From a virus (lineage: Duplodnaviria; Heunggongvirae; Uroviricota; Caudoviricetes), in the IMG/VR virus record IMGVR_UViG_2711768004_000013: a stretch of DNA of 45,436 nt. One strand, 5' to 3'. Shown one piece after another: positions 26,357 to 45,060 of this stretch. The notes under the pieces were generated by a model. The model searched no databases, had not been told where the DNA came from, and saw only the letters and a list, made by a program, of their open reading frames with translations. The position numbers and the translations under genes were made by a program. The stretch's first letter is position 1, and every line of letters begins with the position of its first letter.

Positions 26357-26694
26357 CGCGGGAAATGCAGTTTGTCATGCGGCTTGCCCGGGAGTTCCGG
26401 CGGGCAGACTGGCGGCGGATGCTGTCGGAAATGTCGGCCACTGAGCTTGGTCAGTGGGGCGATTATTTCCGGATGCAGAGCTTCAGTGATGTGTGGATGG
26501 ATGCGCAGTTTGCCTCGCTGAAGGCATTGATCGTGAGAATGGTGTCCGGCAGCAGTGATGCTGCGGTGGCTGATTTCAGCCTTTTACCGGAAGAGAACGG
26601 GATACCGGAGCGAACGGACGAAGAACTGATGCATCTTGGGGAAGGTATTTCCGGAGGTGTGCGTTATGGACCAGATAGCCAACCTGGTCATTGA
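26344..26694 (+). CDS. tail assembly chaperone T-like extension, probably expressed as a G-T fusion by -1 frameshift
   Basis: The -1 frame is open from the end of G to 26694; candidate slip site G_GAA_AAG at 26344-26350, which is similar to but not identical with lambda G_GGA_AAG. Confidence 0.5.
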   Translation, partial: GKVLTREMQFVMRLAREFRRADWRRMLSEMSATELGQWGDYFRMQSFSDVWMDAQFASLKALIVRMVSGSSDAAVADFSLLPEENGIPERTDEELMHLGEGISGGVRYGPDSQPGH

Positions 26695-29600
26695 TTTGGG
26701 GATTGATGCGGCAGAGTTTAAAAATGAAATTCCCCGTATCAAAAACCTTCTGAATGGTGCAGCCAGCGATGCAGAACGGTCTTCTGCCCGTATGCAGCGT
26801 TTTATGGAGCGTCAGACTCAGGCCGCCCGGCAGACAACGCAGGCGGCTTCTTCGGCTGCAACAGCCGCATCCGTCCATGCGCAGACGGTGGAGAAGAACG
26901 CACAGGCTCATGAACGCATGTCCCGCGAGGTGGAGAAAACCCGCCAGCGCATGGAGGCACTGAGCCAGAAAATGCGCGAGGAACAGGCGCAGGCCATGGC
27001 TCTGGCGGAGGCTCAGGATAAAGCGGCTGCTGCGTTTTATCGTCAGATTGACAGTGTGAAACAGGCCAGTGCGGGGCTGCAGGAATTACAGCGTATTCAG
27101 CAGCAGATCCGACAGGCCAGAAACAGTGGCGGGATTGGTCAGCAGGATTATCTGGCGCTGATTTCTGAGGTTACGGCGAAAACCCGTGTTCTTACACAGG
27201 CTGAGGAAGAGGCTACCCGACAGAAAGTGGCGTTTATCCGTCAGCTTAAAGAGCAGGCAACCCGCCAGAATCTTTCATCTTCTGAGTTGCTTCGTGCTAA
27301 GGCTGCCCAGCTGGGGGTAAGCAGTGCTGCAGAAGTGTATATCCGCAAAATGGAGCAGGCAGGAAAAGCCACGCATTCGCTGGGTCTGAAAAGTGCAGCA
27401 GCCCGCCAGGAGATAGGCGTTCTGATAGGTGAACTGGCCCGCGGCAATTTAGGGGCGCTGAGGGGGTCCGGAATAACGCTGGCTAACCGTGCCGGATGGA
27501 TAGACACACTGATGTCACCGAAAGGCATGATGCTGGGCGGGGTTATTGGCGGTATTGCCGCGGCTGTCTATGGTCTGGGTAAAGCCTGGTATGACGGTCA
27601 GAAGGAGGGGGAAGAATTTAACCGCCAGTTGTCGCTGACGGGGCATTATGCCGGAGTCACTGCCGGGCAGCTGTGGACGCTCAGTCGTGCTATTTCCGGG
27701 AATGGTATTACGCAACATGCTGCAGCCGGTGCGCTGGCTCAGGTGGTGGGGAGTGGTGCATTTCGTGGAAACGATATCGGTATGGTGGCGAGAGCTGCCG
27801 CACAGATGGAGCGATCGGTTGGCCAGTCGGTCAGCGATACCATAAATCAGTTTAAGCGGCTGAAGGATGATCCTGTAAATGCCGCGAAGGCTCTGGACAA
27901 TGAGCTGCATTTTCTTACTGCCACTCAGCTTGAGCAGATACGCGTCCTTGGGGAACAGGGGCGGTCCAGTGATGCGGCACGGATAGCCATGTCTGCACTG
28001 GCAGAGGAAACCGGTCGGCGTACTGCGGATATTGATAATAACCTCAATGCGCTGGGCAGTACGCTGAAGTATCTGTCTGATTTATGGAGTCGTTTCTGGG
28101 ATGCGGCCATGAATATTGGTCGTGAAGACTCGCTGGATGAACAGATTTCCGCTTTACAGGAGAAAGTGTCGCGGGCGAAAAGACTCCCCTGGACGGCATC
28201 ATCTTCTCAGGTTGAGTACGATCAGCAGCGTCTTAACGAGCTTCAGGAGAAAAAACGCCAGAAGGATTTGCAGGATGCAAAAGAGCAGGCAGAGCGGAAT
28301 TATCAGGAGCAACAGAAACGCCGTAATGCTGAAAATGCTGCACTGAACCGGATGAATGAAACGGAAGCAGCACGACATCAGCGTGAAATTGCGCGTATTA
28401 ATTCCATGCAGTACGCCGATCAGGCTGTCAGGGATGCGGCGATACAACGTGAAAATGAACGTTACGAGAAAGCCCTGGCATCCGGTAAGAAAAAAACACG
28501 CGAACCCCGTAATGATGAGGCCACCCGGTTATTGCTGCAGTACAGTCAGCAACAGGCACAGGTGGAAGGACAGATTGCTGCTGCCAGACAGTCAGCAGGC
28601 ATTGCCACGGAAAGGATGACAGAAGCGCATAAACAGCTTCTGGCTCTGCAGCAGCGCATCAGCGACCTGGACGGGAAAAAACTGACGGCAGATGAAAAGA
28701 GTGTGCTGGCCCGTAAAGATGAACTGATTCAGGCACTGACGCTGCTGGATGTAAAACAGCAGGAGCTTCAGAAACAGACGGCACTCAACGAGCTGAAGAA
28801 AAAAACAATTCAGCTGACCAGTCAACTGGCTGAAGAAGAGCGCGCTCAGCGTCAGCAACATGACCTGGATATCGCCACGGTGGGTATGGGTGATCAGCAG
28901 CGGCAGCGATATCAGGTACAACTGAGTCTTCGCCAGAAATACCAGCAACAGCTGGAGCAGTTGAGGCGGGATAGTGAGCAGAAAGGAACATATAACACGG
29001 ATGACTACAGAAAGGCCGAGCAGGCGCTGACGGAGAGCCTGAACCGACAACTGAATGAGAATCGCCGTTACTGGCAACAGCTTGAAGTTGTGCAGGGTAA
29101 CTGGAAAAACGGAGTCCTGCGTGCATTTCAGGATTTTACCGTGGATGCAGATAATACGGCAGGAACAGCAGAACAGGTGTTCTCGTCAGCCTTCAGCAAC
29201 ATGGGAAATGGCCTGGCAACTTTTGTCACTACCGGCAAACTCAATTTCAAATCCTTCACCTCTTCTGTGCTGTCAGATATGGCGAAAATCCTGGCGCAGG
29301 CAACCATGATGAAATCGATAAAAGGGATTGGCAGTGTACTGGGATTTGATCTCAGCAGCCTTTCCCTGAATGCCAATGGGGGGATTTATCAGTCTGCTGA
29401 TTTGAGTCGTTACAGTGGCACGGTGGTTAACCGTCCGACGTTTTTTGCTTTTGCAAAAGGCGCGGGTGTGATGGGGGAAGCGGGACCTGAAGCCATTCTG
29501 CCACTGCGTCGTGGTGCTGACGGTAAGCTGGGGGTTGTGGCGGATATTGGTGGTTCAGGTATGGCGATGTTTGCCCCGCAGTACAACATCGAGATCAATA

Positions 29601-29731
29601 ACGATGGCACGAACGGGCAGATAGGTCCGGCTGCCCTGAAGGTGGTTTATGACCTTGGGAAAAAAGCGGCAGCGGACTTTATGCAACAGCAGGCCCGTGA
29701 TGGTGGTCGGTTAAGTGGAGCATATCGGTAA
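26666..29731 (+). CDS. tail tape measure protein (gpH-like)
   Basis: About 1021 aa, long coiled-coil-rich (Q/A/E/R) protein; GGAGG 9 nt upstream of the ATG at 26666. Confidence 0.85.
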   Translation: MDQIANLVIDLGIDAAEFKNEIPRIKNLLNGAASDAERSSARMQRFMERQTQAARQTTQAASSAATAASVHAQTVEKNAQAHERMSREVEKTRQRMEALSQKMREEQAQAMALAEAQDKAAAAFYRQIDSVKQASAGLQELQRIQQQIRQARNSGGIGQQDYLALISEVTAKTRVLTQAEEEATRQKVAFIRQLKEQATRQNLSSSELLRAKAAQLGVSSAAEVYIRKMEQAGKATHSLGLKSAAARQEIGVLIGELARGNLGALRGSGITLANRAGWIDTLMSPKGMMLGGVIGGIAAAVYGLGKAWYDGQKEGEEFNRQLSLTGHYAGVTAGQLWTLSRAISGNGITQHAAAGALAQVVGSGAFRGNDIGMVARAAAQMERSVGQSVSDTINQFKRLKDDPVNAAKALDNELHFLTATQLEQIRVLGEQGRSSDAARIAMSALAEETGRRTADIDNNLNALGSTLKYLSDLWSRFWDAAMNIGREDSLDEQISALQEKVSRAKRLPWTASSSQVEYDQQRLNELQEKKRQKDLQDAKEQAERNYQEQQKRRNAENAALNRMNETEAARHQREIARINSMQYADQAVRDAAIQRENERYEKALASGKKKTREPRNDEATRLLLQYSQQQAQVEGQIAAARQSAGIATERMTEAHKQLLALQQRISDLDGKKLTADEKSVLARKDELIQALTLLDVKQQELQKQTALNELKKKTIQLTSQLAEEERAQRQQHDLDIATVGMGDQQRQRYQVQLSLRQKYQQQLEQLRRDSEQKGTYNTDDYRKAEQALTESLNRQLNENRRYWQQLEVVQGNWKNGVLRAFQDFTVDADNTAGTAEQVFSSAFSNMGNGLATFVTTGKLNFKSFTSSVLSDMAKILAQATMMKSIKGIGSVLGFDLSSLSLNANGGIYQSADLSRYSGTVVNRPTFFAFAKGAGVMGEAGPEAILPLRRGADGKLGVVADIGGSGMAMFAPQYNIEINNDGTNGQIGPAALKVVYDLGKKAAADFMQQQARDGGRLSGAYR

Positions 29732-30060
29732 TGGAGACGTTTCACTGGAAAGTGCGCCCGGATATGAATGTGGTATCAGAGCCGAAAGTGGTGACAGTGA
29801 AGCTGGGCGATGGTTATGAACAGCGTCGTGCGGCGGGACTGAATAACCAGTTGTCGACTTACAGCGTGACGATACGTGTTCGTAAATGTGAACACCCATC
29901 TTTAAAAGCCTTTCTGGAACGGCACGGTGGCGTCCGCGCATTTCAGTGGACGCCACCTTATGACTGGAAGCCGATCAGGGTGGTTTGTCGTAAATGGTCG
30001 GCAAGCGTGGGGGCGTTGTGGGTAACCATAACGGCAGATTTTGAACAGGTCGTGGCATAG
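29731..30060 (+). CDS. minor tail protein (gpM-like)
   Basis: 109 aa, same length and position as lambda M. Confidence 0.8.
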   Translation: METFHWKVRPDMNVVSEPKVVTVKLGDGYEQRRAAGLNNQLSTYSVTIRVRKCEHPSLKAFLERHGGVRAFQWTPPYDWKPIRVVCRKWSASVGALWVTITADFEQVVA

Positions 30061-30069
30061 GAGTCTCTG

Positions 30070-30768
30070 ATGCAGGATATTCCACAGGAAACACATCATG
30101 AGACGACACGCCTCACTCAGTCAGCCCAGGTGGTGCTCTGGGAAATCGATCTGACAGAGGTCGGTGGAGAACGTTATTTTTTCTGTAATGAGCAGAACGA
30201 AAAAGGTGAGCCGGTCACCTGGCAGGGGCGACAGTATCAGGCGTATCCCATTCAGGGGACGGGATTTGAACTGAACGGCAAGGGCAGTGCTGCCCGTCCG
30301 ACACTGACGGTTTCTAACCTGCACGGCATGGTCACCGGGATGGCGGAAGATCTGCAGAGTCTGGTCGGCGGAACGGTGGTCCGGCGTAAGGTTTACGCCC
30401 GTTTTCTGGATGCGGTGAACTTCGTCAACGGAAACAGTGACGCCGATCCGGAGCAGGAGGTGATCAGCCGCTGGCGCATCGAGCAGTGCAGCGAACTGAG
30501 CGCGGTGAGTGCCTCTTTTGTACTGTCCACGCCGACGGAAACAGATGGCGCTGTTTTTCCGGGACGTATCATGCTGGCCAACACCTGCACCTGGACCTAT
30601 CGCGGCGATGAGTGCGGTTATCACGGTCCGGCGGTCGCGGATGAATATGATCAGCCGACGTCCGATATCACGAAGGATAAATGCAGCAAATGCCTGAGCG
30701 GCTGTAAGTTTCGCAATAACGTCGGCAACTTTGGCGGCTTCCTTTCCATTAACAAACTTTCGCAGTAA
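30070..30768 (+). CDS. minor tail protein (gpL-like)
   Basis: 232 aa, same length and position as lambda L; C-terminal Cys cluster; AGGAG upstream. Confidence 0.8.
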   Translation: MQDIPQETHHETTRLTQSAQVVLWEIDLTEVGGERYFFCNEQNEKGEPVTWQGRQYQAYPIQGTGFELNGKGSAARPTLTVSNLHGMVTGMAEDLQSLVGGTVVRRKVYARFLDAVNFVNGNSDADPEQEVISRWRIEQCSELSAVSASFVLSTPTETDGAVFPGRIMLANTCTWTYRGDECGYHGPAVADEYDQPTSDITKDKCSKCLSGCKFRNNVGNFGGFLSINKLSQ

Positions 30769-30773
30769 ATCCC

Positions 30774-31517
30774 ATGACAGAGACAGAATCAGCGATTCTG
30801 GCGCACGCCCGGCGATGTGCGCCAGCGGAGTCGTGCGGCTTCGTGGTGAGAACACCGGAGGGGGAAAGATATTTTCCCTGCGTGAATATCTCCGGTGAGC
30901 CGGAGGAGTATTTCCGGATGTCGCCGGAGGACTGGCTGCGGGCAGAGATGCAGGGTGAGATTGTGGCGCTGGTCCACAGCCACCCCGGTGGTCTGCCCTG
31001 GCTGAGTGAGGCCGACCGGCGGCTGCAGGTGCAGAGTGATTTGCCGTGGTGGCTGGTCTGCCGGGGGGCGATTCACAAGTTCCGCTGTGTGCCACATCTT
31101 ACCGGGCGGCGCTTTGAGCACGGGGTGACGGACTGTTACACGCTGTTCCGGGATGCTTACCATCTGGCGGGGATTGAGATGCCGGATTTTCATCGCGGGG
31201 ATGACTGGTGGCGTCACGGTCAGAATCTCTATCTGGATAATCTGGAGGCTACAGGGCTGTATCAGGTGCCGTTGTCAGCGGCGCAGCCGGGCGATGTGCT
31301 GCTGTGCTGTTTTGGTTCATCGGTGCCGAATCATGCCGCCATTTACTGTGGTGACGGCGAGCTGCTGCACCATATTCCTGAACAACTGAGCAAACGAGAG
31401 AGGTATACCGACAAATGGCAGCGACGCACACACTCCCTCTGGCGTCACCGGGCATGGCACGCATCTGCCTTTACGGGGATTTACAACGATTTGGCCGCCG
31501 CATCGACCTTCGAGTGA
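30774..31517 (+). CDS. tail assembly protein (gpK-like, JAB/MPN plus NlpC/P60-like)
   Basis: HSHP motif (VALVHSHPGG) typical of JAB/MPN; Cys/His residues of an NlpC/P60-like domain. Confidence 0.8.
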   Translation: MTETESAILAHARRCAPAESCGFVVRTPEGERYFPCVNISGEPEEYFRMSPEDWLRAEMQGEIVALVHSHPGGLPWLSEADRRLQVQSDLPWWLVCRGAIHKFRCVPHLTGRRFEHGVTDCYTLFRDAYHLAGIEMPDFHRGDDWWRHGQNLYLDNLEATGLYQVPLSAAQPGDVLLCCFGSSVPNHAAIYCGDGELLHHIPEQLSKRERYTDKWQRRTHSLWRHRAWHASAFTGIYNDLAAASTFE

Positions 31518-32062
31518 AAACGGGGTCCGAAGCCATCCGGGCGCTGGCCATGCAGATCCCGGCGTTTCGTCAGAAACTGAATGAGGGCTGGTATCAGGTG
31601 CGCATTGCCGGGCGTGATGCAGGCGAAAATGAATTATCTGCCCGTCTTAATGAGCCGCTGGCAAATGGTGCCGTGATCCACATCGTGCCGCGTCTGGCGG
31701 GAGCTAAAAGTGGCGGTGTGTTTCAGGTGGTGCTTGGGGCGGCGCTGATTGCGGTGGCATGGTGGAACCCTGTGGGCTGGCTGGGGGCCGCGGCTGTATC
31801 GGGCATGTATGCGGCAGGGGCCAGTATGATCCTGGGCGGAGTGGCGCAGATGCTGGCACCGAAAGCCAGGACGCCCACGGCAGCCAGTACAGATAACGGC
31901 AAACAGAACACCTATTTCTCCTCACTGGATAACATGGTTGCCCAGGGCAATGTTCTGCCTGTTCTGTACGGTGAAATGCGCGTGGGGTCACGTGTGGTTT
32001 CTCAGGAGATCAGCACGGCAGACGAAGGGGATGGTGGTCAGGTTGTGGTGATTGGTCGCTGA
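31415..32062 (+). CDS. tail assembly protein (gpI-like); alternative GTG start at 31514 overlapping the K stop
   Basis: C-terminal hydrophobic Gly/Ala-rich segment and ...NVLPVLYGEMRVGSRVVSQEIS... as in lambda gpI. Confidence 0.7.
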   Translation: MAATHTLPLASPGMARICLYGDLQRFGRRIDLRVKTGSEAIRALAMQIPAFRQKLNEGWYQVRIAGRDAGENELSARLNEPLANGAVIHIVPRLAGAKSGGVFQVVLGAALIAVAWWNPVGWLGAAAVSGMYAAGASMILGGVAQMLAPKARTPTAASTDNGKQNTYFSSLDNMVAQGNVLPVLYGEMRVGSRVVSQEISTADEGDGGQVVVIGR

Positions 32063-32122
32063 TGCAAAATGTTTTATGTGAAACCGCCTCCGGGCGGTTT
32101 TGTCGTTTATGGAGCGTGAGGA

Positions 32123-35100
32123 ATGGGTAAAGGCAGCAGTAAGGGGCATACCCCGCGCGAAGCAAAGGACAACCTGAAGTCCACGCAGTTGCTGAGTGTG
32201 ATCGATACCATCAGCGAAGGGCCGGTTGAAGGTCCGGTGGATGGATTAAAAAGCGTGCTGCTGAACAGTACACCGGTGCTGGACAGTGAGGGGAATACCA
32301 ACATCTCTGGTGTCACGGTGGTGTTCCGGGCAGGTGAGCAGGAACAGACACCGCCGGAGGGATTTGAATCATCAGGTTCCGAGACGGTACTGGGTACGGA
32401 AGTGAAATACGACACGCCGATCACCCGGACCATCACGTCGGCAAACATTGACCGTCTGCGCTTTACCTTCGGTGTGCAGGCACTGGTGGAAACCACCTCA
32501 AAGGGGGACAGGAATCCGTCGGAAGTCCGCCTGCTGGTTCAGATACAACGTAATGGTGGCTGGGTGACGGAAAAAGACATCACCATTAAGGGCAAAACCA
32601 CCTCGCAGTATCTGGCCTCGGTGGTGGTGGGTAACCTGCCGCCGCGCCCGTTCAATATACGGATGCGCAGGATGACGCCGGACAGCACCACAGACCAGCT
32701 GCAGAACAAAACGCTCTGGTCGTCATACACCGAAATCATCGATGTGAAACAGTGCTACCCGAACACGGCACTGGTCGGCGTGCAGGTGGATTCGGAGCAG
32801 TTCGGCAGCCAGCAGGTGAGCCGTAATTATCATCTGCGCGGGCGCATTCTGCAGGTGCCGTCGAGCTATAACCCGCAGACGCGGCAATACAGCGGTATCT
32901 GGGACGGAACGTTTAAGCCAGCATACAGCAACAACATGGCCTGGTGTCTGTGGGATATGCTGACCCATCCGCGCTACGGCATGGGGAAACGTCTTGGTGC
33001 GGCGGATGTGGACAAATGGGCGCTGTANNNNNNNNNNNNNNNNNNNNNNNNNNNNNNNNNNNNNNNNNNNNNNNNNNNNNNNNNNNNNNNNNNNNNNNNN
33101 NNNNNNNNNNNNNNNNNNNNNNNNNNNNNNNNNNNNNNNNNNNNNNNNNNNNNNNNNNNNNNNNNNNNNNNNNNNNNNNNNNNNNNNNNNNNNNNNNNNN
33201 NNNNNNNNNNNNNNNNNNNNNNNNNNNNNNNNNNNNNNNNNNNNNNNNNNNNNNNNNNNNNNNNNNNNNNNNNNNNNNNNNNNNNNNNNNNNNNNNNNNN
33301 NNNNNNNNNNNNNNNNNNNNNNNNNNNNNNNNNNNNNNNNNNNNNNNNNNNNNNNNNNNNNNNNNNNNNNNNNNNNNNNNNNNCATTGCCCGTTACGGTC
33401 GTAACGTCACGAAGATGGATGCTTTTGGCTGTACCAGCCGGGGGCAGGCACACCGCGCCGGGCTGTGGCTGATTAAAACAGAACTGCTGGAAACGCAGAC
33501 CGTGGACTTCAGCGTGGGTGCCGAAGGGCTTCGCCATGTACCGGGCGATGTCATTGAAATCTGCGATGATGACTATGCCGGTATCCGCACCGGCGGGCGC
33601 GTGCTGGCGGTAAACAGCCAGACCCGGACGCTGACGCTCGACCGTGAAATCACGCTGCCATCTTCCGGCACCACGCTGATAAGCCTGGTTGACGGGCAGG
33701 GGAGTCCGGTCAGCGTGGAGGTTCAGTCCGTCACCGACGGCGTGAAGGTGAAAGTGAGCCGTGTTCCTGACGGCGTTGCTGAATACAGCGTATGGGGGCT
33801 GAAGCTGCCGACGCTGCGCCAGCGCCTGTTCCGCTGCGTGAGTATCCGTGAGAACGACGACGGCACGTATGCCATCACTGCCGTGCAGCATGTACCGGAA
33901 AAAGAGGCCATCGTGGATAACGGGGCGCACTTTGACGGCGACCAGAGCGGCACGGTAAATGGTGTCACGCCGCCAGCGGTGCAGCACCTGACCGCAGAAG
34001 TCACCGCAGACAGCGGGGAATACCAGGTGCTGGCCCGCTGGGACACGCCGAAGGTGGTGAAGGGCGTGAGCTTCCTGCTTCGCCTGACCGTGGCAGCGGA
34101 TGACGGCCGTGAGCGGCTGGTCAGCACGGCCCGGACGACGGAAACCACTTACCGCTTCACACAACTGGCTCTGGGGAACTACAGGCTGACAGTCCGGGCA
34201 GTAAATGCGTGGGGGCAGCAGGGCGATCCGGCGTCGGTATCGTTCCGGATTGCCGCACCGGCAGCGCCGTCGCGGATTGAGCTGACGCCGGGCTATTTTC
34301 AGATAACCGCCACGCCGCATCTTGCGGTTTATGACCCGACGGTACAGTTTGAGTTCTGGTTCTCGGAAAAACGGATTGCGGATATCAGGCAGGTTGAAAC
34401 CACAGCCCGCTACCTTGGCACGGGGCTGTACTGGATAGCCGCCAGTATCAATATTAAGCCGGGCCATGATTATTACTTTTATATCCGCAGTGTGAACACC
34501 GTCGGCAAATCAGCATTCGTGGAGGCTGTCGGTCGGGCGAGCGATGATGCGGAAGGTTACCTGGATTTTTTCAAAGGCCAGATAACCGAATCCCATCTCG
34601 GCCAGGAGCTGCTGGAAAAAGTCGACCTGACGGAGGATAACGCCAGCAGACTGGAGGAGTTTTCGAAAGAGTGGAAGGACGCCAACGATAAGTGGAATGC
34701 CATGTGGGGCGTCAAAATTGAGCAGACCAAAGACGGCAAACATTATGTCGCGGGTATTGGCCTCAGCATGGAGGACACGGAGGAAGGCAAACTGAGCCAG
34801 TTTCTGGTTGCCGCTAACCGTATCGCGTTTATTGACCCGGCAAACGGGAATGAAACGCCGATGTTTGTGGCGCAGGGCAACCAGATATTCATGAATGACG
34901 TGTTCCTGAAACGCCTGACGGCTCCCACCATTACCAGCGGTGGAAATCCGCCGGCATTTTCCCTGACACCAGACGGAAAGCTGACCGCTAAAAATGCGGA
35001 TATCAGCGGTAATGTGAATGCAAATTCAGGGACGCTCAACAATGTCACGATTAACCAGAACTGTACGATTAAGGGCATGCTGGAGGCGACCCAGGTCAGA

Positions 35101-35532
35101 GGAGATTTCGTTAAAGCTGTATCAAAAGCCTTCCCGAAAAAAGTCGGTACGTGGGGTAACACGGAAACACCAAACGGTACGGTTACAGTCACCATCAGCG
35201 ATGATCATAACTTTGACCGCCAGATTATTATTCCGCCCATTATTTTTAACGGTATAGCGTATGACGATCCGGGGAGCGGAAATAACCCAGGAGGCACGCG
35301 ATACACGGGTTATGGTTTTGAAGTTCGCAAAAACGGCGTATTAATCGCATCCAGAGAAACTAAAGGGGCCATTCCCGGTAGTTACAGTGCAGTTATTGAT
35401 ATGCCGAGTGGCAGGGGAAGCGTCACTCTGGAGTTTAAGATTTTCCAGAAAGGCAATCAGGGGGCAGGCAATATCACCGACTGTACGGTGATTGTGACCA
35501 AAAAAGCCGCTTCCGGCATCAGTATTCGTTGA
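32123..35532 (+). CDS. central tail fiber / host specificity protein (gpJ-like), interrupted by an assembly gap
   Basis: Total span about 1136 codons, comparable to lambda J; the two flanks of the N-run are in different frames, so the gap length is not the true length. Confidence 0.8.
33027..33383. other. assembly gap (N-run) inside the J-like gene
   Basis: 357 consecutive N. Confidence 0.95.
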
Positions 35533-35554
35533 AATATTTATAACCCCAATAAAG

Positions 35555-35578
35555 GGCGTCAGGAATGACGCCTTTTTT
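35555..35578 (+). terminator. intrinsic terminator after J
   Basis: GGCGTCA-GGAA-TGACGCC followed by TTTTTT. Confidence 0.6.
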
Positions 35579-35602
35579 ATTGCAGAAAAGCGAGAGGTAA
35601 TT

Positions 35603-36202
35603 ATGCGTAAAGTTTGTGCAGCAATTTTGTCCGCAGCCATTTGTCTGGCCGTATCCGGTGCGCCTGCATGGGCGTCTGAACATCAGTCCACGCTGAGCGC
35701 GGGGTATCTTCATGCCTCGACGAACGTCCCCGGCAGTGATGATCTGAACGGGATTAACGTGAAATACCGTTATGAGTTTACGGACACACTGGGGCTGGTG
35801 ACGTCATTCAGCTATGCAGGAGACAAGAATCGCCAGCTGACCCGTTACAGCGATACCCGCTGGCATGAAGATTCCGTTCGTAACCGCTGGTTCAGCGTAA
35901 TGGCGGGGCCGTCTGTGCGCGTGAATGAATGGTTCAGCGCGTATGCGATGGCGGGTGTGGCTTACAGCCGTGTGTCGACTTTCTCCGGGGATTATCTTCG
36001 CGTAACTGACAACAAGGGGAAAACGCACGATGTGCTGACCGGAAGTGATGACGGTCGCCACAGCAACACGTCTCTGGCGTGGGGAGCTGGCGTGCAGTTT
36101 AACCCGACCGAATCCGTGGCCATTGATATTGCTTATGAAGGCTCCGGCAGTGGCGACTGGCGCACTGACGGTTTCATCGTGGGTGTCGGTTATAAATTCT
36201 GA
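35603..36202 (+). CDS. lom: Lom-like outer membrane beta-barrel protein (Ail/Lom/PagC family)
   Basis: 199 aa with signal peptide and alternating beta-strand pattern ending ...GVGYKF; located between J and stf as lambda lom is. Confidence 0.8.
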   Translation: MRKVCAAILSAAICLAVSGAPAWASEHQSTLSAGYLHASTNVPGSDDLNGINVKYRYEFTDTLGLVTSFSYAGDKNRQLTRYSDTRWHEDSVRNRWFSVMAGPSVRVNEWFSAYAMAGVAYSRVSTFSGDYLRVTDNKGKTHDVLTGSDDGRHSNTSLAWGAGVQFNPTESVAIDIAYEGSGSGDWRTDGFIVGVGYKF

Positions 36203-36228
36203 TTAGCCAGGTAACACAGTGTTATGAC

Positions 36229-36255
36229 AGCCCGCCGGTTCAGGCGGGCTTTTTT
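36229..36255 (+). terminator. intrinsic terminator after lom
   Basis: AGCCCGCC-GGTTCA-GGCGGGCT followed by TTTTTT. Confidence 0.6.
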
Positions 36256-36266
36256 GTGGGGTGAAT

Positions 36267-39200
36267 ATGGCAGTAAAGATTTCAGGTGTACTGAAAGACG
36301 GCACAGGAAAACCGGTACAGAACTGCACAATCCAGCTGAAAGCAAAACGTAACAGCACCACGGTGGTGGTGAACACGCTGGCCTCAGAAAATCCGGATGA
36401 AGCCGGGCGTTACAGCATGGACGTTGAGTACGGTCAGTACAGCGTTATTCTGTTGGTGGAAGGATTCCCGCCGTCACATGCCGGGACCATCACCGTGTAT
36501 GAAGATTCCCGACCCGGTACGCTGAATGATTTTCTCGGTGCCATGACGGAGGATGATGCCCGTCCTGAGGCACTGCGCCGCTTTGAACTGATGGTGGAAG
36601 AGGTGGCGCGTAACGCGTCCGCGGTGGCACAGAACACGGCAGCCGCGAAGAAATCAGCCAGCGATGCCAGCACATCAGCCCGTGAGGCGGCAACCCGTGC
36701 GACTGATGCTGCAGGCTCAGCACGAGCAGCCAGCACGTCAGCCGGACAGGCCGCTTCGTCGGCTCAGTCTGCGTCTTCCAGCGCAGGAACGGCATCAGCA
36801 AAGGCCACTGAAGCATCAAAAAGTGCTGCCGCTGCAGAGTCCTCAAAAAGCGCGGCGGCCACCAGTGCCGGTGCGGCGAAAACGTCAGAAACGAATGCGG
36901 CAGCGTCACAACAATCAGCTGCCACTTCTGCATCCACCGCGACCACGAAAGCGTCAGAAGCAGCCACCTCAGCCAGAGATGCGTCGGCTTCAAAAGAGGC
37001 GGCAAAATTATCAGAAACGAGCGCAGCTTCGAGCGCCAGTAATGCCGCTTCCTCGGCAACGGCGGCAGGAAATTCCGCGAAGGCGGCAAAGACGTCTGAG
37101 ACAAACGCTAAGTCCTCTGAAACGGCAGCAGCACAGAGTGCCTCCGCAGCAGCAGGCTCAAAAACAGCGGCTGCGTCGTCTGCCAGTGCAGCGTCAACAA
37201 GTGCCGGGCAGGCCTCAGCCAGTGCTAGCGCCGCCGGAAAATCGGCAGAAAGCGCCGCATCGTCCGCTTCAACAGCCACAACGAAGGCTGGCGAAGCCAC
37301 TGAACAGGCCAGTGCAGCAGCGAGGTCTGCTTCCGCAGCGAAGACATCGGAGACGAACGCGAAAGCGTCGGAGACCAGCGCAGAATCCTCAAAAACGGCT
37401 GCCGCATCGTCCGCCAGTTCGGCGGCGTCATCGGCATCATCGGCGTCTGCTTCAAAAGATGAGGCGACCAGACAAGCGTCCGCAGCGAAGGGCAGCGCCA
37501 CGACAGCATCCACGAAGGCGACAGAGGCTGCTGGCAGTGCGACGGCGGCAGCACAGAGCAAAAGTACGGCGGAATCCGCGGCAACGCGCGCCGAGACAGC
37601 GGCAAAACGTGCAGAGGATATTGCATCCGCCGTGGCGCTTGAGGATGCGAGCACGACGAAAAAGGGGATAGTACAGCTCAGTAGTGCGACTAATAGCACG
37701 TCTGAAACGCTGGCGGCAACGCCAAAGGCAGTAAAAGCAGCCAATGACAATGCTGAGAAACGTCTGCAGAAAGACCAGAACGGCGCTGATATACCCGATA
37801 AGGGACGCTTCCTGAACAACATTAACGCGGTCAGTAAAACAGACTTTGCTGATAAGCGTGGTATGCGTTATGTGCGGGTTAACGCTCCTGCAGGTGCAAC
37901 ATCTGGAAAATATTACCCTGTTGTTGTTATGCGTTCTGCTGGCTCAGTAAGCGAACTGGCATCAAGGGTCATTATCACCACGGCAACGCGAATCGCAGGC
38001 GATCCGATGAATAACTGCGAGTTTAACGGATTTGTTATGCCTGGTGGCTGGACTGACAGGGGGCGTTATGCTTATGGAATGTTCTGGCAATATCAAAACA
38101 ATGAACGAGCCATCCACTCAATAATGATGAGTAATAAGGGCGATGATTTGCGCTCTGTGTTCTATGTTGATGGCGCTGCTTTCCCTGTTTTTGCGTTTCT
38201 CGAAGATGGCCTGTCAATATCCGCACCTGGTGCTGATCTCGTTGTTAATGATACGACCTATAAGTTTGGGGCAACAAATCCGGCGACTGAATGTATCGCG
38301 GCGGACGTTATCCTTGATTTTAAGAGTGGGCGTGGTTTTTATGAGTCTCATTCGTTAATCGTTAACGATAACTTGTCGTGCAAAAAACTTTTTGCCACAG
38401 ACGAAATTGTAGCGCGTGGTGGTAATCAGATTCGAATGATAGGTGGGGAGTATGGTGCATTATGGCGTAATGATGGCGCTAAAACTTACCTGCTGCTTAC
38501 CAATCAAGGTGATGTTTATGGTGGCTGGAATACATTAAGACCGTTTGTTATTGATAACGCAACCGGCGAACTGGTTATTGGAACCAAACTGTCTGCAAGT
38601 CTGAACGGTAACGCATTGACAGCAACAAAGCTGCAAACGCCAAGACTGGTTTCTGGTGTTGAGTTTGATGGTTCCAAAGATATTACTTTAACCGCCGCGC
38701 ATGTGGCTGCTTTTGCCAGAAGGGCAACGGATACATATGCCGATGCGGATGGTGGCGTTCCATGGAATGCCGAATCAGGCGCTTACAATGTCACCCGCTC
38801 TGGCAACAGCTATATTCTGGTTAACTTCTATACCGGAGTCGGAAGTTGCCGGACCTTGCAGATGAAGGCGCATTACAGAAATGGTGGTCTGTTCTACCGT
38901 TCTTCAAGAGACGGTTATGGTTTTGAGGAAGACTGGGCAGAAGTTTATACCTCGAAAAATCTTCCACCAGAAAGCTACCCAGTCGGTGCACCAATCCCGT
39001 GGCCATCAGATACCGTTCCGTCTGGTTATGCCCTGATGCAGGGACAGACTTTTGACAAATCTGCTTACCCGAAACTTGCAGCCGTTTATCCGTCAGGTGT
39101 GATCCCTGATATGCGTGGCTGGACGATTAAGGGCAAACCTGCCAGTGGTCGGGCCGTATTGTCTCAGGAACAGGACGGCATTAAATCGCATACCCACAGC

Positions 39201-39665
39201 GCCAGCGCATCCAGTACGGATTTGGGGACGAAAACCACATCGTCGTTTGATTACGGCACTAAATCCACGAATAACACTGGTGCGCATACCCATAGTTTAA
39301 GTGGCAGCACGAATGCAGCTGGTAATCACAGCCATAGAGATGGCCGTCGATTTAACCCCAGTGTTTTTAAAGATACTTATCAATATGGTTATACAAGCTC
39401 AGGTCAAAATACCTGGGGTGTACAAGGCTCAGTAGGTATGTCTACGGGGTGGTTAGCGAATACCAGTATAGATGGTAATCATAGCCATTCACTGTCCGGC
39501 ACAGCAGCATCTGCAGGTGCACACGCGCATACTGTCGGTATTGGTGCTCATACGCACTCCGTTGCGATTGGTTCACATGGACATACCATCACCGTTAACG
39601 CTGCGGGTAACGCGGAAAACACCGTCAAAAACATCGCATTTAACTATATTGTGAGGCTTGCATAA
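36267..39665 (+). CDS. stf: side tail fiber protein (Stf-like)
   Basis: N-terminus [26 protein letters not shown] matches lambda Stf; long Ala/Ser/Thr-rich repeat region; C-terminal His-rich HxH repeats. Confidence 0.85.
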
Positions 39666-40249
39666 TGGCATTCAGAATGAGTGAACAACCACGGACCATA
39701 AAAATTTATAATCTGCTGACCGGAACTAATGAATTTATTGGTGAAGGTGACGCATATATTCCGCCTCATACAGGTCTGCCAGCAAACAGTACCTATATTG
39801 CACCGCCAGATATTCCGGCTGGCTTTGTGGCTGTTTTCAACAGTGATGAGGCATCGTGGCATCTCGTTGAAGACCATCGGGGTAAAACGGTTTATGACGT
39901 AGCGTCAGGGGACGCGTTATTTATTTCTGAACTCGGTCCGTTACCGGAAAATGTTACCTGGTTATCCCCGGAAGGGGAGTTTCAGAAGTGGAACGGCACA
40001 GCCTGGGTGAAGGATACGGAAGCAGAAAAACTGTTCCGGATCCGGGAGGCGGAAGAAACAAAAAACAGCCTGATGCAGGTAGCCAGTGAGCATATAGCGC
40101 CGCTTCAGGATGCTGTGGATCTGGAGATCGCAACGGAGGAAGAAAACTCGTTGCTGGAAGCCTGGAAGAAGTATCGGGTGTTGCTGAACCGTGTTGATAC
40201 ATCAACTGCACCTGATATTGAGTGGCCTGCGGTCCCTGTTATGGAGTAA
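39665..40249 (+). CDS. tfa: tail fiber assembly protein (Tfa-like)
   Basis: 194 aa immediately after stf with TAATG overlap; same length as lambda Tfa. Confidence 0.8.
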
Positions 40250-40320
40250 TCGTTTTGTGATATGCCGCAGCAACTTGTCATGGCAGGATACTGCGGCTGA
40301 TTTGTGAATTTAAATAGTGT

Positions 40321-40390
40321 NNNNNNNNNNNNNNNNNNNNNNNNNNNNNNNNNNNNNNNNNNNNNNNNNNNNNNNNNNNNNNNNNNNNNN
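40321..40390. other. assembly gap (N-run)
   Basis: 70 consecutive N. Confidence 0.95.
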
Positions 40391-40405
40391 TAATGGATTA
40401 CATAT

Positions 40406-41776
40406 CTATGATATCCCTGAAATGTCCTCTTCAAGCTCTTTTACTGATTTCGCAATTTTAAATTTAAATTTTCTCTCTATTTCACTATTGCTAAGTTTTT
40501 TTTCATTCTCTTTCCCTATCCACATAGAAACAATTTCTCGTTTCTGAGATATATGTAGATTGTCAAAGTTAGGTATGTATTTAAAAGTCTCCGCTCTACC
40601 CCTGCGGAGTTCATAGAAAGTTTTAATCAAAGACTTTGGTTTTATTTCTGATGAAAGGCCGAATCGGCGGATAAGATTATTGATCGTATGATTAACAGCT
40701 CGAAGTTGAGCTGTTGACGTTATTTGTGAGAAGTACGATACCCATCCCAATCGTTTACCTTCAAACACACATCCCGTAATTCTAAGATTTAGTTTCCACT
40801 GACAATATGCAACAGCTCGTTCTTTATCGCGCTTATTTTTAGCTTGTAGTAGAGCGTGTCTATATGCAGTAAAAATTTTTGCTAAGGATGACTCAAATCT
40901 AAGAATGCTCTCATGTTTTATCAATAATTCTCGATTTTTTATGTGGTAGCCCAAAAAGTTGAAACTTTCATCCAAGCTGCCTACTTTGGATTTTGAGTTC
41001 TCTTCATTTAATGGATGTGGGTTTAAATTTAATGATTGAAGCTTATCAATGATATGAGAAGCTATTTTTGTTGCTTGATATTTTGGTGTTAAAATAAGAA
41101 TGTCATCAACGTATCGCATGTACCATATGTCATGCATTTTATTGATTTCATCATCGAAATTAGATAGTGATATTTCAGCTAAAATGTTTGATATCGCTAA
41201 TCCCTGAGGTACTCCTCTGGTATTATTAGGGATACCTTTGCTTCCTGTGGTTCCACTTACAGTAGGCACGATTAATGATGATGTTATTAACTGTCTAATT
41301 TCTTTTTTTCTAATTTTATTTTTTATTGCATTAATTATCAATTTATGTTCAATTGAAGGATAGAAACTTTTAAGATCTATTTTTGCATATTCAGCATATA
41401 GACTGTTGTTTAATGCTTCTTTCAATGAGTCAATTACTGTATGTGGTAGTTTTAATCTGGACTTAGGATATATTTCCGTAAGGCATTCACAGAGAGCTCT
41501 AAGAGTAATTCTGTCCCTAGCAGTTGGTATGGAAATCTGTCTGGGTGTAGAGTTAGCGCCTTTAGATATTAATTTTTCTTTATATGCTGTAAATTTGTAA
41601 TTGCCAGAATTAACCTTTTCAAAAATGAAAGTGATCTCATTTTTTATTGTCAAATCAAGTTTTGATGGGCGAATCCGATCTATGCCAATCGCTCCTGATT
41701 CTTTGATTTTTTCAGAGTATACTTTTAGAAGATTTTTTTTCGAGAATGACTTTTTAAAAATTCTGCTTGCAGTCAT
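40406..41776 (-). CDS. reverse transcriptase (retron / group-II-like catalytic motifs; probable defence-associated RT)
   Basis: 456 aa from the ATG at 41776 (ORF track extends to a TTG at 41782); motifs in order: GIDRIRP, RQISIPTARDR, IDLKSFYPSI (motif A), GVPQGLAISNILAEI (motif B), YMRYVDDILIL (motif C, YVDD), FNFLGYHI (motif E), RITG in the thumb; AT-rich; overlaps the upstream membrane-protein gene by 23 nt. Confidence 0.8.
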   Translation of the reverse strand: MTASRIFKKSFSKKNLLKVYSEKIKESGAIGIDRIRPSKLDLTIKNEITFIFEKVNSGNYKFTAYKEKLISKGANSTPRQISIPTARDRITLRALCECLTEIYPKSRLKLPHTVIDSLKEALNNSLYAEYAKIDLKSFYPSIEHKLIINAIKNKIRKKEIRQLITSSLIVPTVSGTTGSKGIPNNTRGVPQGLAISNILAEISLSNFDDEINKMHDIWYMRYVDDILILTPKYQATKIASHIIDKLQSLNLNPHPLNEENSKSKVGSLDESFNFLGYHIKNRELLIKHESILRFESSLAKIFTAYRHALLQAKNKRDKERAVAYCQWKLNLRITGCVFEGKRLGWVSYFSQITSTAQLRAVNHTINNLIRRFGLSSEIKPKSLIKTFYELRRGRAETFKYIPNFDNLHISQKREIVSMWIGKENEKKLSNSEIERKFKFKIAKSVKELEEDISGIS

Positions 41777-42305
41777 AGTCAATCCAAAGATATATTAATG
41801 GGAGTATATAAAGTGCGGCAGTAATAAATATTCGAAGTAATATCCATAAAATAACAATTATTTTTTCTTTTTGTGTGGGGATCCTCGTCTTAAGTCCAAC
41901 TTGAGTTACCCTTGAAATTTTATCATCTATGTCACGGTGATTCTCAACCTCATTGAGCAAATTAAAATATTTTTCTTTCTGTTCAAGAGATAACTGTTGA
42001 CTGGTGGTAATGTCAAAATAGAGTCGCTGTAGTGCAATATAATTCCTTCTCATGGCTATTGCTCGACCACGAAAATCTAGGTTAGATACGATCAGAGAAA
42101 TACCCAGTAGAGCCACTGAAAGTATCGCCGCAACGACATCTGTATTATCTCCTAGAACCTTTGGAAATCGCAACGTTACAATTGAAAGTACCGCACTCAA
42201 TATAGCATACCAAACGAGGATAAATTGAGAGTGTTTTTCAAGCCATTCTAGTCGATGGTGCGCTTGGATACGTGCTTTATATGTAAACCAAATATTGTCA
42301 TGCAT
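41754..42305 (-). CDS. small multi-TM membrane protein (2TM / SLATT-like), putative effector of the RT system
   Basis: 183 aa; two adjacent hydrophobic helices near the N-terminus, a predicted helical soluble stretch, and a C-terminal hydrophobic helix; AAGGA 6 nt before the ATG at 42305. Confidence 0.6.
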   Translation of the reverse strand: MHDNIWFTYKARIQAHHRLEWLEKHSQFILVWYAILSAVLSIVTLRFPKVLGDNTDVVAAILSVALLGISLIVSNLDFRGRAIAMRRNYIALQRLYFDITTSQQLSLEQKEKYFNLLNEVENHRDIDDKISRVTQVGLKTRIPTQKEKIIVILWILLRIFITAALYILPLIYLWIDYDCKQNF

Positions 42306-42470
42306 AAAAGATCCTTTTTAAAAGCGGAAGGGGCAGGATATATTGGAACCGTTGAACATCCTGCCCGGCAGGATCAGTGAGCATAAGCTCAACAGTAAAA
42401 TATTACTGTTCATTATCAGAGCCGCCCTTGCATGCGCAAGAGGAAAAACCTGCCCCATCCCTTTGAATTA
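42306..42470 (-). ncRNA. candidate structured non-coding RNA / 5-prime leader of the RT operon (retron msr-msd-like or DRT-ncRNA-like)
   Basis: ORF-free interval with a possible promoter (TTGACT, 17 nt, TGTAATAAT on the minus strand), distal inverted repeats GGGGCAGG / CCTGCCCC, and several internal hairpins. Confidence 0.3.
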
Positions 42471-42527
42471 TTACAATTTAATGATCTTAAAGTCAATACA
42501 AGTGAATGGTGTCCAGAGATGATGAAC

Positions 42528-42776
42528 TTAATGAACAAACCACTCGTCAGCAGACTCCCAGGTATCTTTCAGAGTCTCCTGAACAAAAGTTTTAGCTGAA
42601 TCTTTATCAGCGGTGCGCGTAACAGAAAGGCCATCGTTGCTGGTGGCTTTTACGATCACTTCTACATCGTCATAACGTTTACTGATGCGTCGGGTTAATT
42701 CTTCCTTTAACGCATCCACAGCACCGGTTGGCATTTTAGTCATTTTTTCTTTGGCTATGCAGATTTCAATACGCAT
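42528..42776 (-). CDS. DinI-like DNA-damage-inducible protein
   Basis: 82 aa; [11 protein letters not shown]... and ...[16 protein letters not shown] parallel E. coli DinI; GGGGA Shine-Dalgarno; two LexA boxes in its promoter region. Confidence 0.8.
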
Positions 42777-42790
42777 AAAAGTCCCCTACA

Positions 42791-42834
42791 CTGTATTTGT
42801 ATACAGTATTATTTTTAACTGTATGGATAAACAG
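42791..42834. promoter_or_regulatory. two tandem LexA (SOS) boxes upstream of the dinI-like gene
   Basis: CTGTATTTGTATACAG (42791-42806) and CTGTATGGATAAACAG (42819-42834), both CTGT-N8-ACAG. Confidence 0.55.
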
Positions 42835-42836
42835 TG

Positions 42837-43934
42837 TCAAGAGGTCTTATTTCTGCTCCTTTGGAGTTCTTCAAAACGATTATGTAAAGATTTCGGATAC
42901 AGTTCGGTATATACCTGCCATAGCACGTTTAATGAACGATGCCCTGTAACCTGAGCGACTTCCTCAATACTAAAACCAGCCTCAAATAAGCGACTTGCCC
43001 CTTCTCTACGCAAATCATGGTATCTCAGATCTTTAATACCTAATTTGCTTCTTACCCTCTGAAATCCTGCGGTAACAGAAGTGCTGTTATATGGAAAAAT
43101 GAATTCTGATTTTTTGGGTTGTCGCTGGACGATATCCCAGGCTTCCCCAAGCAAGGCAACTTTCATATGGTTGCCTTCCTTTTTACGTGGATCTTTCCTG
43201 TCTCTTACTAGTATAGATTTTTGTTCCTGGTCGAGATCTTCCCATCGTAACCGGCATACTTCTCCGATTCGCATACAGGACCACACAGAAAATTTGAGGA
43301 TATCAACGAACGGAATTTTTGAGCATTTATGAGTAGATCGTTGTTGAAGGCCTTCAATGAGCATGTTCAGTTCATCAGATGCTGGTCTACGATTACGACG
43401 GTTTGATTTACCAATCAAACCGAGTTTAAGTAGATATGGACGAGCGCTTTTCGCCGGGTTTGATGTGTAATTGATTCCGTATACAGGTTTTGCCGCATCC
43501 AGAACACTGCCAAGATAACTAACATCGTGGCTGACTGTTGCTGGGCCTGCACCAGCGTTGTTTCTTAGCCTGCAATGTTCAATTACGTCATTTTCTGTCA
43601 GTTCAGATAGTTTGATCGCGGAGATGTCACTATCCATAAGCAGTTCCAGCACATATCTTTTAGTACGGCCTGCTTTACCTCCGGCATTTGGGTCATTTAA
43701 ATATTTGTGTAGTAAGTCACGGACTGTAAGTCCGTCAACAGCATTTGATGATGGAATGCCATATAGATCTAATTCCATCACTTTCTGTGCGCCCCATGTT
43801 TTGGCATGAGCATGTTTAGGGAATGTTTTGCTTTCCCTGTAAGTGATAACACCTTTTTCTTTGATAATCACATTACAGCGATAGCGTGGTGTGCCATCGG
43901 ATTTTAGTCGTTTCTCTATGTTATAGTACGCCAT
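42837..43934 (-). CDS. int: tyrosine integrase (dusA-associated type)
   Basis: 365 aa; C-terminal catalytic residues in HDLRREGASRLF, VTGHRS and LWQVYTE; immediately adjacent to dusA. Confidence 0.9.
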   Translation of the reverse strand: MAYYNIEKRLKSDGTPRYRCNVIIKEKGVITYRESKTFPKHAHAKTWGAQKVMELDLYGIPSSNAVDGLTVRDLLHKYLNDPNAGGKAGRTKRYVLELLMDSDISAIKLSELTENDVIEHCRLRNNAGAGPATVSHDVSYLGSVLDAAKPVYGINYTSNPAKSARPYLLKLGLIGKSNRRNRRPASDELNMLIEGLQQRSTHKCSKIPFVDILKFSVWSCMRIGEVCRLRWEDLDQEQKSILVRDRKDPRKKEGNHMKVALLGEAWDIVQRQPKKSEFIFPYNSTSVTAGFQRVRSKLGIKDLRYHDLRREGASRLFEAGFSIEEVAQVTGHRSLNVLWQVYTELYPKSLHNRFEELQRSRNKTS

Positions 43935-43953
43935 TACACGACCTCGTTATTTC

Positions 43954-43989
43954 GGGTTCCCATAAAGCGTGGGAACCTGTGCGGGAACC
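43954..43989. repeat. GGGAACC direct repeats with one inverted copy in the int-dusA intergenic region (possible recombinase or regulator binding sites)
   Basis: GGGTTCCC at 43954-43961, then GTGGGAACCT and GCGGGAACCT at 43969-43990. Confidence 0.3.
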
Positions 43990-44022
43990 TAACGCGAGAA
44001 AAATAGCCTGAAATGTTCAAAA

Positions 44023-45060
44023 ATGCACGATAATCCTGAAACACAGAAAACTAATCAAACCAGCGTGATGCCTGAAAAAACTGGCGCTTACTGGAGTTCT
44101 CGGTTTAGCATTGCTCCTATGCTCGACTGGACGGACAGACATTGCCGCTATTTCTTGCGTCTGCTTTCCCGCAATACGTTGCTGTATACCGAAATGGTGA
44201 CCACAGGGGCGATTATTCACGGTAAAGGTGATTACCTGGCGTACAGTGAAGAAGAACATCCGGTAGCGTTGCAACTCGGCGGTAGCGATCCGGCGGCGCT
44301 GGCACAGTGTGCGAAGCTGGCAGAAGCGCGTGGATATGATGAGATCAACCTGAATGTCGGCTGCCCGTCTGACCGGGTGCAGAACGGCATGTTTGGTGCG
44401 TGTCTGATGGGTAATGCGCAGCTGGTTGCCGACTGCGTGAAAGCGATGCGCGATGTGGTGTCGATTCCAGTGACGGTGAAAACGCGTATTGGCATCGATG
44501 ACCAGGACAGCTATGAATTTCTCTGCGATTTCATCAACACCGTTTCCGGCAAAGGCGAGTGTGAGATGTTTATCATCCACGCACGTAAAGCCTGGCTTTC
44601 GGGGTTAAGCCCGAAAGAAAACCGTGAAATCCCGCCACTCGATTATCCGCGTGTGTATCAACTGAAGCGTGACTTTCCGCATCTGACAATGTCGATTAAC
44701 GGTGGTATCAAGTCGCTGGAAGAGGCCAAAGCACACCTGCAACATATGGATGGCGTGATGGTCGGGCGCGAGGCGTATCAGAATCCGGGTATTCTGGCGG
44801 CGGTAGACCGGGAGATCTTTGGTTCCTCGGATACCGATGCCGATCCGGTGGCGGTAGTGCGCGCCATGTATCCGTACATTGAGCGTGAACTCAGCCAGGG
44901 GACGTATCTCGGCCATATTACCCGGCATATGTTGGGCTTGTTCCAGGGTATTCCTGGCGCGCGGCAGTGGCGGCGTTATTTAAGTGAAAATGCCCATAAA
45001 GCGGGTGCAGACATTAATGTGCTGGAACACGCGCTCAAACTGGTGGCGGATAAGCGTTAA
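44023..45060 (+). CDS. dusA: tRNA-dihydrouridine synthase A
   Basis: 345 aa with the conserved ...[16 protein letters not shown]... region and active-site context NLNVGCP; recognisably E. coli DusA. Confidence 0.9.

Follow-up and report, generated by a model that had tools for sequence, protein, structure and literature searches.

A lambdoid prophage in the 5' end of Escherichia coli dusA and putative arm-type sites of its dusA-associated integrase

The DNA under study, termed the window throughout, is 45,436 nucleotides long. At its right end, the gene of a tyrosine integrase (int) and the gene dusA are arranged divergently, with the ATG of int (43934-43932, minus strand) facing dusA. The coordinates of the features discussed below are collected in Table 1. 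The original prediction had placed the stop codon of int opposite dusA at a spacing of 88 bp; the spacing was correct, but it is the start codon that faces dusA, as int is encoded on the minus strand. The gap between the two genes was identical to the corresponding part of the free-phage attP of mEp460 and SKA5 save for single-base changes. No sigma-70-like promoter or terminator was found in a scan of positions 43800-44200, which included the gap. A direct repeat of CCTGAAA, present three times (44007, 44035 and 44071), was set aside as unremarkable; its last copy also occurs in native dusA.

Table 1. Features of the window at the integrase-dusA junction and near the far prophage end
Feature	Position	Strand	Remarks
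Lambdoid prophage DNA	1..44118		starts ~250 bp inside the far (dusA-remnant) junction
PrtN-family gene	1250..1531	-	Pfam PF11112 PyocinActivator, E = 3e-23
dusA-specific tyrosine integrase, 365 aa	42837..43934	-	Pfam PF00589, E = 8e-21
Divergent gap between int and dusA start codons, part of attP P arm	43935..44022	.	88 bp
Inverted copy of the putative arm motif, GGGTTCCCA (minus strand TGGGAACCC)	43954..43962	-	GGGAACC at 43955-61
Putative arm-type repeat, copy 1, TGGGAACCTG	43970..43979	+	GGGAACC at 43971-77; -148 from core start
Putative arm-type repeat, copy 2, CGGGAACCTA	43982..43991	+	12 bp after copy 1; GGGAACC at 43983-89; -136 from core start
dusA, 345-aa hybrid DusA	44023-45060	+	Pfam Dus E = 8e-105; NCBIfam DusA TIGR00742 E = 6.5e-175
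Phage-supplied replacement dusA 5' end, codons 1-32	44023..44118	+	uninterrupted allele matched at 78/96 nt and 22/32 aa
Common core ATGCTCGA, dusA codons 33-35 (M-L-D)	44119..44126	+	sole stretch identical in attR, attL, attP and attB
Host-derived rest of dusA	44127..45060	+	with 44023-44126 forms an intact 345-aa hybrid DusA

The dusA allele of E. coli strain M15 was used as uninterrupted reference. Upstream of 44019, no similarity to the M15 locus was found; codons 1-32 were 81% identical (78 of 96 nt), and from 44119 onwards the identity was 99.3% (935 of 942 nt), the change occurring exactly at ATGCTCGA. Based on these three zones, the 5' end of dusA is foreign but homologous in this DNA, and the encoded N terminus does not match that of the uninterrupted allele exactly (Table 1). 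The hybrid gene keeps the reading frame and the length of 345 aa. Segment 44023-44118 was also present in the genomes of the free phages mEp460 and SKA5, in the latter with the annotation 'tRNA-dihydrouridine'. The proposal that the element supplies a replacement 5' end of dusA was borne out by the difference between these first 96 nt and the remaining 942 nt.

For localization of the core, attR of the window, attP of mEp460 and SKA5, attL of strain CDF6, and attB of M15 were aligned. In this five-sequence alignment, attR consisted of the left part of attP followed by the right part of attB, and ATGCTCGA was the one block common to all sequences. The att sites of strain H10407 gave the same picture as those of CDF6. 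Eight E. coli elements are listed in Table S1 of Farrugia 2015 (PMC4482086), among them that of H10407 at 4684277..4723914; these coordinates correspond to the final base of the stranded dusA 5' remnant (start) and the final base of ATGCTCGA (end). The heptamer TGCTCGA (44120-44126) would represent the 7-bp crossover or overlap region with its core-type half-sites: in attP it lies between the perfect inverted pentamers TCCTA and TAGGA, and in attB it is flanked by CACCA-A and C-TGGA. The att core had been expected in or just upstream of the first dusA codons, within a junction spanning 43935-44110. It was found 96 nt inside the coding sequence, at codons 33-35, and the proposed span ends 9 nt before it.

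The attL site and the P' arm were read in near-identical relatives; those of the window prophage fall beyond the window. In CDF6, a 105-nt pseudogene annotated as 'tRNA-dihydrouridine synthase, missing C-terminus' is located at the far prophage end beside the normal upstream neighbour of dusA. This native 105-nt 5' end of dusA is kept as a pseudogene at the far junction of both near-identical prophages, CDF6 and H10407. Positions 1-49 of the window are the start of a Panacea-domain gene; in CDF6, this gene and the dusA remnant are 253 bp apart, which places the second junction just beyond the window start. The assumption that the other junction lies outside the window was hence accurate, the distance past the window start being ~250 bp, and the direct repeat sought there would be ATGCTCGA, which is common to attR of the window and attL of CDF6 and H10407. 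A location of both junctions inside the window was rejected, as no attL-like copy was found within it. A 139-aa open reading frame (570-989), for which no family match was obtained, shares 4 nt with the SocA/Panacea-domain gene (1-573; Pfam E = 1.8e-18). Situated at the prophage end by the far att junction, the two genes look like an antitoxin-toxin-type pair.

The integrase belongs to the dusA-associated integrase (DAI) family of Farrugia 2015 (PMC4482086). DAIs were described there, from over 200 genomes, as tyrosine recombinases whose genes adjoin the start of dusA. Their islands provide a new dusA 5' end, are bounded by semi-conserved 21-bp attL and attR sites, and are excised as circles. 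DAIs were described as Rci-like, the shufflon recombinase Rci being the closest characterised relative (Farrugia 2015, PMC4482086). The integrase of the window was identical in 362 of 365 residues to the integrase of the H10407 dusA prophage listed in Table S1 of that study, and showed identities of 99.2% and 98.1% to the integrases of phages 1720a-02 and mEp460, respectively. Residues R222, H306, R309, H332, and Y342 were invariant in 22 homologues and aligned with the catalytic motifs of XerA. Besides the catalytic residues and the homology to a listed DAI, the locus displays the position of int beside dusA, a replaced dusA start (with the stranded native remnant seen in the near-identical prophages of CDF6 and H10407), and an att site at the codons for A-P-M-(M/L)-D-W. 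These codons are conserved between attR of the window (...GCATTGCTCCTATGCTCGACTGGAC) and attR of Acinetobacter baumannii D1279779 (TCAGTGTAGCTCCAATGATGGACTGGAC). The A. baumannii att site given in the supplement of Farrugia 2015 (PMC4482086) comprises the homologous A-P-M-M-D-W codons, and the integrase start is likewise directed toward dusA. The involvement of a dedicated dusA-targeting integrase family, which had been suggested before, was thus confirmed by 99% identity to a catalogued member. The integrase of mEp460 is annotated as INT_Rci (cd00796) and a distant phage match is named shufflon-specific recombinase; both names are depositors' annotations only.

Comparison to characterised dusA elements revealed few differences. 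DAI islands and the H10407 prophage (PMC4482086) share with the window the divergent int-dusA arrangement, the target codons, the 5' replacement, the far remnant, and a prtN gene near the far end. No essential difference was found; 21-bp att sites are given in the paper, and the term 'arm-type' does not appear in its main text. The Stx2 phage 1720a-02 (Phi-stx2dact) integrates 100 bp into dusA of Citrobacter rodentium; a 7-base core is common to its attL, attR, attP, and attB, and attP reads regenerated in vivo were recovered (PMC6328086). The DNA from int to the core is ~97% identical between the window and 1720a-02 (96.7%) or mEp460, whereas the cargo and late regions differ, the window carrying a UG17 reverse transcriptase and a SLATT protein beside int; Shiga toxin genes were not noticed among its genes. 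Excision of circles with restoration of native dusA has been reported for Acinetobacter and Pseudomonas islands (PMC4482086) and for 1720a-02 (PMC6328086). For IMEVchUSA3 and the dusA-specific elements of Vibrio, the integrase and a PrtN-family factor encoded across attP suffice for integration and excision (Durand 2021, PMC8409611). IMEVchUSA3 uses the same dusA 5' target as the window prophage; it belongs to plasmid-mobilised islands, whereas the window holds a tailed prophage.

A prtN gene is given for E. coli islands in Farrugia Table S1 (PMC4482086). In dusA-specific elements, excision depends on RdfN, a PrtN homologue whose gene is located on the other side of attP from int (Durand 2021, PMC8409611). 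The PrtN-family gene of the window lies ~1.5 kb from the far junction and across attP from int, as in mEp460 and CDF6. By analogy, its product is likely a recombination directionality factor homologous to RdfN. Taken together, the comparison with H10407, 1720a-02, RdfN, and the relatives of the integrase identified a known system of which the window copy is a routine member.

A full lambdoid structural gene set was present in the window. Positions 20500-45436 were at most 99.1% identical, over 97% of the length, to dusA-inserted prophages of other strains. A 701-nt probe across the junction detected the junction in 740 of 5426 complete E. coli genomes (~14%). The dusA part of the probe was matched in all 5426 genomes and the integrase side in the same 740 only; in the remaining genomes, similarity extended either from the dusA start codon, with ~94-95% identity, or from position 44110 of the window, with ~97-98%. 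From the junction anatomy and the family membership, the right end of the window is interpreted as the integrase-proximal junction of an ordinary E. coli lambdoid prophage that entered dusA through the action of a dusA-associated tyrosine integrase (probability roughly 0.9).

The 701-nt junction probe was matched with 100% identity in E. coli AR434 (NZ_CP029122.1, ~4557000-4596000). The distance from dusA to malK is only ~37 kb in this strain, so the dusA element there must be much shorter than the window prophage, and the integrase module is shared with a different or degraded element. AR434 was left out of the reading of the far junction because it carries this shorter element.

The prophage might also be a fossil, i.e., placed by the integrase but no longer able to excise, with repeats and core as relics. 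E. coli O157:H7 strains hold only a 10.8-kb remnant at the same site (Farrugia Table S1, PMC4482086), and spontaneous excision of dusA islands is rare (<1e-7 or <0.001%; PMC4482086, PMC8409611). Against this stand the full-length int with all catalytic residues, the intact PrtN gene, the complete structural gene set, and arm and core sequences equal to those of the plaque-forming or induced phages mEp460, SKA5, PhiR phages, and 1720a-02. A fossil is therefore considered improbable. The window prophage may be active: int with its catalytic residues, the PrtN gene, and the att sites show no defect and correspond to those of phages that have been isolated.

The gap between int and dusA contains GGGAACC twice on the plus strand and once on the minus strand, in agreement with the direct and inverted copies reported in the original prediction. 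The inverted pair is formed by GGTTCCCA and TGGGAACC (8 nt). The repeats had been regarded as part of the junction itself; they lie 130-165 bp away from the core and are not the att direct repeat. The pair GGTTCCCA/TGGGAACC was rejected as a hairpin or terminator, since a T-run is missing and only 24 of the 66 related loci contain the inverted copy, the direct pair being general. Chance occurrence in an A+T-rich intergenic region, together with an accidental position of the integrase beside an intact dusA, was also considered. The repeats are short, and GGGAACC occurs just three times in the 45.4-kb window, below the ~5 copies expected from shuffling. The three copies are confined to 35 bp (P ~2e-6), the dusA 5' end is demonstrably replaced, and a tandem pair of altered sequence is kept in related loci, as described below. 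Coincidence has been refuted by these comparative data and is given next to no weight.

For comparison of related loci, one genome per species was scanned. This yielded 351 relatives of the integrase, of which the best 80 (52-99% identity) were used. Among these 80, the gammaproteobacterial orders Enterobacterales, Vibrionales, Alteromonadales, Aeromonadales, and Oceanospirillales were represented, and in 53 loci a divergent dusA was located ~90 bp upstream of int. The others of the best 80 were on contigs too short to tell, had different neighbour genes, or, in one case, contained an intact attP. A G+C-rich tandem pair with a spacing of 11-12 bp was found in the related loci at a median distance of 34 nt from the int start (best 80 of 351). 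The sequence of the pair varies by lineage and includes GGGAACC/GGGAGCC, GGGGTGC, GGTGTAC, GGTGTCC, GGGATAC, GGGTACC, GGGGTAC, and GGGGCAC. An automatic detector called the pair in 66 loci with full-length integrase from the best 80 of 351 relatives. Strong tandem pairs (score >= 8) were detected in 51 of these 66 loci and in 1 of 79 control segments inside int.

The intact attP was found in locus L050, a contig of a Shewanella metagenome-assembled genome, and consists of a dusA-like 5' segment, a ATGCTGGA core, and GGGATAC/GGATCCC repeats. The presence of an attP instead of a dusA junction indicates that the element is excised or has not integrated. Roughly one in four close relatives among the best 80 of 351 keep the tandem arm repeats but adjoin genes other than dusA (loci L031-L044, L054, L056, L062, L077, and L081), some with a dusA-like 'ATGCACGAAAAT' start. 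Neighbours in these loci include a DEAD-box helicase-like open reading frame (L038), an NlpC/P60-like lipoprotein (L041), and a 6-phosphogluconolactonase-like open reading frame (L032). Preservation of the repeats beside other genes suggests that the core specificity was retargeted.

A scan of IMG/VR with the integrase alignment retained, in its best 80 matches, only near-identical E. coli copies (89-100%) and no divergent attP. Divergent attP sites were obtained by tblastn against GenBank phage genomes. A second tandem pair of the respective lineage motif was found past the core in the intact attP of mEp460, SKA5, YeP1, IME1369_02, C5a, and Kp4882-1. The pair reads TGGGAGCCTAT-TGGGAACC in the E. 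coli phages, GGGGTGCTatTGGGGTGC in YeP1, GGGGTGCTatTGGTGTCC in IME1369_02, GGGGTTCTatTGGGGTCC in Kp4882-1, and GGGTCCCCatTGGGGGAC plus an inverted GGGTGACC in C5a. In the four attP measured (mEp460, SKA5, YeP1, and C5a), the repeats were located at -148, -136/-137, +50/+51, and +61/+62 from the core start. These offsets held at integrase identities of 69% (YeP1) and 54% (C5a). The attP of mEp460, SKA5, and YeP1 also contain the inverted copy, with an offset of -164/-163 relative to the core. In phage cdtI (NC_009514.1, 23116-23652; hits H76 and H111), integrase fragments of ~40-49% of the length and 94-97% identity were detected; annotated as two hypothetical proteins, they are an apparent integrase pseudogene.

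The N-terminal part of the integrase was examined for a domain that might bind such repeats. No arm-binding family was found with Pfam (E <= 10) in residues 1-180, where a weak Int_N match over the core-binding region was the only result. The NCBIfam search of the integrase gave only sub-threshold Xer and integron models, and the PDB sequence search only XerA/XerC-like catalytic matches. An AlphaFold model based on an alignment of 22 sequences (mean pLDDT 83.9) showed three domains. The N-domain was modelled with strands at 2-10, 16-26, and 29-38 and a helix at 41-58 (block pLDDT 84-92), followed by a low-confidence linker, a helical core-binding domain, and the catalytic domain. Modelling of the N-domain alone and without alignment gave a pLDDT of 51; this model was discarded. 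The top Foldseek matches of the integrase model were the Tn1549 integrase and lambda Int. Full-length lambda Int aligned over 358-372 columns compared to 291 for lambda Int(75-356); the rmsd was high, so that the domain-level equivalence is suggestive rather than proven.

Sharing of the repeat motif between loci was predicted by the identity of the N-domains with an AUC of 0.93 (2145 locus pairs), a value to which shared ancestry and physical linkage may contribute. For the same pairs, the AUC was 0.68 for the core-binding domain and 0.68 for the catalytic domain. The non-repeat DNA flanking the repeats, which serves as a partial control for shared ancestry and linkage, gave AUC values of 0.60 and 0.72. 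In a joint logistic model, the N-domain alone retained a clear positive weight. A fixed geometry combined with a changing but internally concerted sequence looks like the arm sites of an intasome, and the GGGAACC repeats are probably arm-type sites that are read by the integrase N-domain, as judged from sequence comparison and the structural model.

The repeats could alternatively be bound by another protein of the element or the host, such as the PrtN-family factor, a phage repressor, or a regulator of the divergent int and dusA promoters. They immediately precede int in a divergent gap of promoter type, and a PrtN gene accompanies many dusA elements. Tandem direct repeats in one att arm are, moreover, bound by the excision factors of other phages, such as lambda Xis. 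Unlike excision-factor sites, tandem pairs are present in either arm, each at a set distance from the core, and the identity of the motif tracks the integrase N-domain and not the flanking DNA. Many islands in Farrugia Table S1 are without a prtN entry, and the integrase is the only universal gene (PMC4482086). Binding by another protein is considered rather unlikely, and recognition by the integrase N-domain is preferred.

The system resembles that of lambda in several respects. Three domains, including an N-terminal three-stranded sheet plus helix, are predicted for the window integrase as in lambda Int; both attP types contain repeated non-core motifs on both arms with a tandem spacing of one helical turn; and a 7-bp overlap with inverted half-sites and a separate excision factor, as in lambda, are likewise predicted for the window prophage. 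In contrast, the structure-based sequence identity is ~17%, the arm motif and the target differ, and arm binding is deduced by comparison for the window integrase. With somewhat less confidence than for the arm sites as such, a lambda-style intasome is proposed for DAIs, in which the N-domain would read four to five arm repeats (-164 inverted, -148, -136, +50, and +61). The N-domain and its arm sites may have been swapped as a module among lineages while the dusA core specificity stayed constant. Arm sites are not mentioned in the main texts of Farrugia 2015 (PMC4482086) and Durand 2021 (PMC8409611). A full-text literature search for dusA together with arm-type retrieved a survey of genomic islands and a general review on conjugative elements as its sole results.

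The following course of integration is proposed. The free-phage attP comprises, in this order, the int start, 88 bp, the 96-nt diverged copy of the dusA 5' end, TCCTA, TGCTCGA, TAGGA, and the P' arm. The integrase would exchange strands inside TGCTCGA, the partner being the same seven bases at dusA codons 33-35. This would fuse the 5' segment brought by the phage to the host reading frame, so that a hybrid DusA of full length is encoded; the native start of dusA would end up ~44 kb away as the 105-nt pseudogene. Phage 21 and e14 integrate in the housekeeping gene icd and bring along a diverged copy of the gene end that they displace, which keeps the gene intact; there, the 3' end of icd is replaced, whereas the window prophage replaces the 5' end of dusA including the start codon and the promoter region.

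The one inverted and two direct GGGAACC copies would act as P-arm sites bound by the N-terminal beta-sheet/helix domain, and together with the second tandem pair ~50 bp past the core in the P' arm they may organise a lambda-like intasome. Excision would require the PrtN-family factor. Since the P-arm sites closely precede the int start codon and thus separate it from any int promoter, the integrase could repress its own gene through them, and an influence on the transcription of the rebuilt dusA is conceivable as well.

Between the tail-fibre assembly gene and int, the prophage carries further cargo. A UG17 reverse transcriptase (RT) is encoded on the minus strand in the region 40406-42305 (PADLOC RT_UG17, E = 1e-158) and is preceded and overlapped by the gene of a SLATT_5 two-transmembrane protein (PADLOC RTasSLATT, E = 1.5e-56; Pfam SLATT_5). 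The two are a candidate defence-associated RT pair; a DinI-like gene (42528-42776) is located alongside. The tail-fibre assembly and RT genes converge on a spacer with a run of 70 N (40321-40390), which lies 15 nt beyond the RT stop codon. In CDF6, only 26 nt (GTTTATTGCTTTATATATAAAGGATT) are found in its place, so the masked stretch differs in length.

The gene dusA is a common insertion site of prophages and islands, and the junction mostly confirms textbook-level biology of mobile elements. For annotation, the prophage end can be set with single-base precision at 44119-44126, codons 1-32 of the annotated dusA derive from the phage, and the hybrid dusA should not be called disrupted. The dusA-targeting system is already known and common, and the modest addition made here is the comparative evidence for arm-type sites. 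Lineage-specific arm repeats of fixed geometry that covary with the N-domain offer a testable handle on the assembly of the recombination complex, and on arm specificity evolving independently of target specificity.
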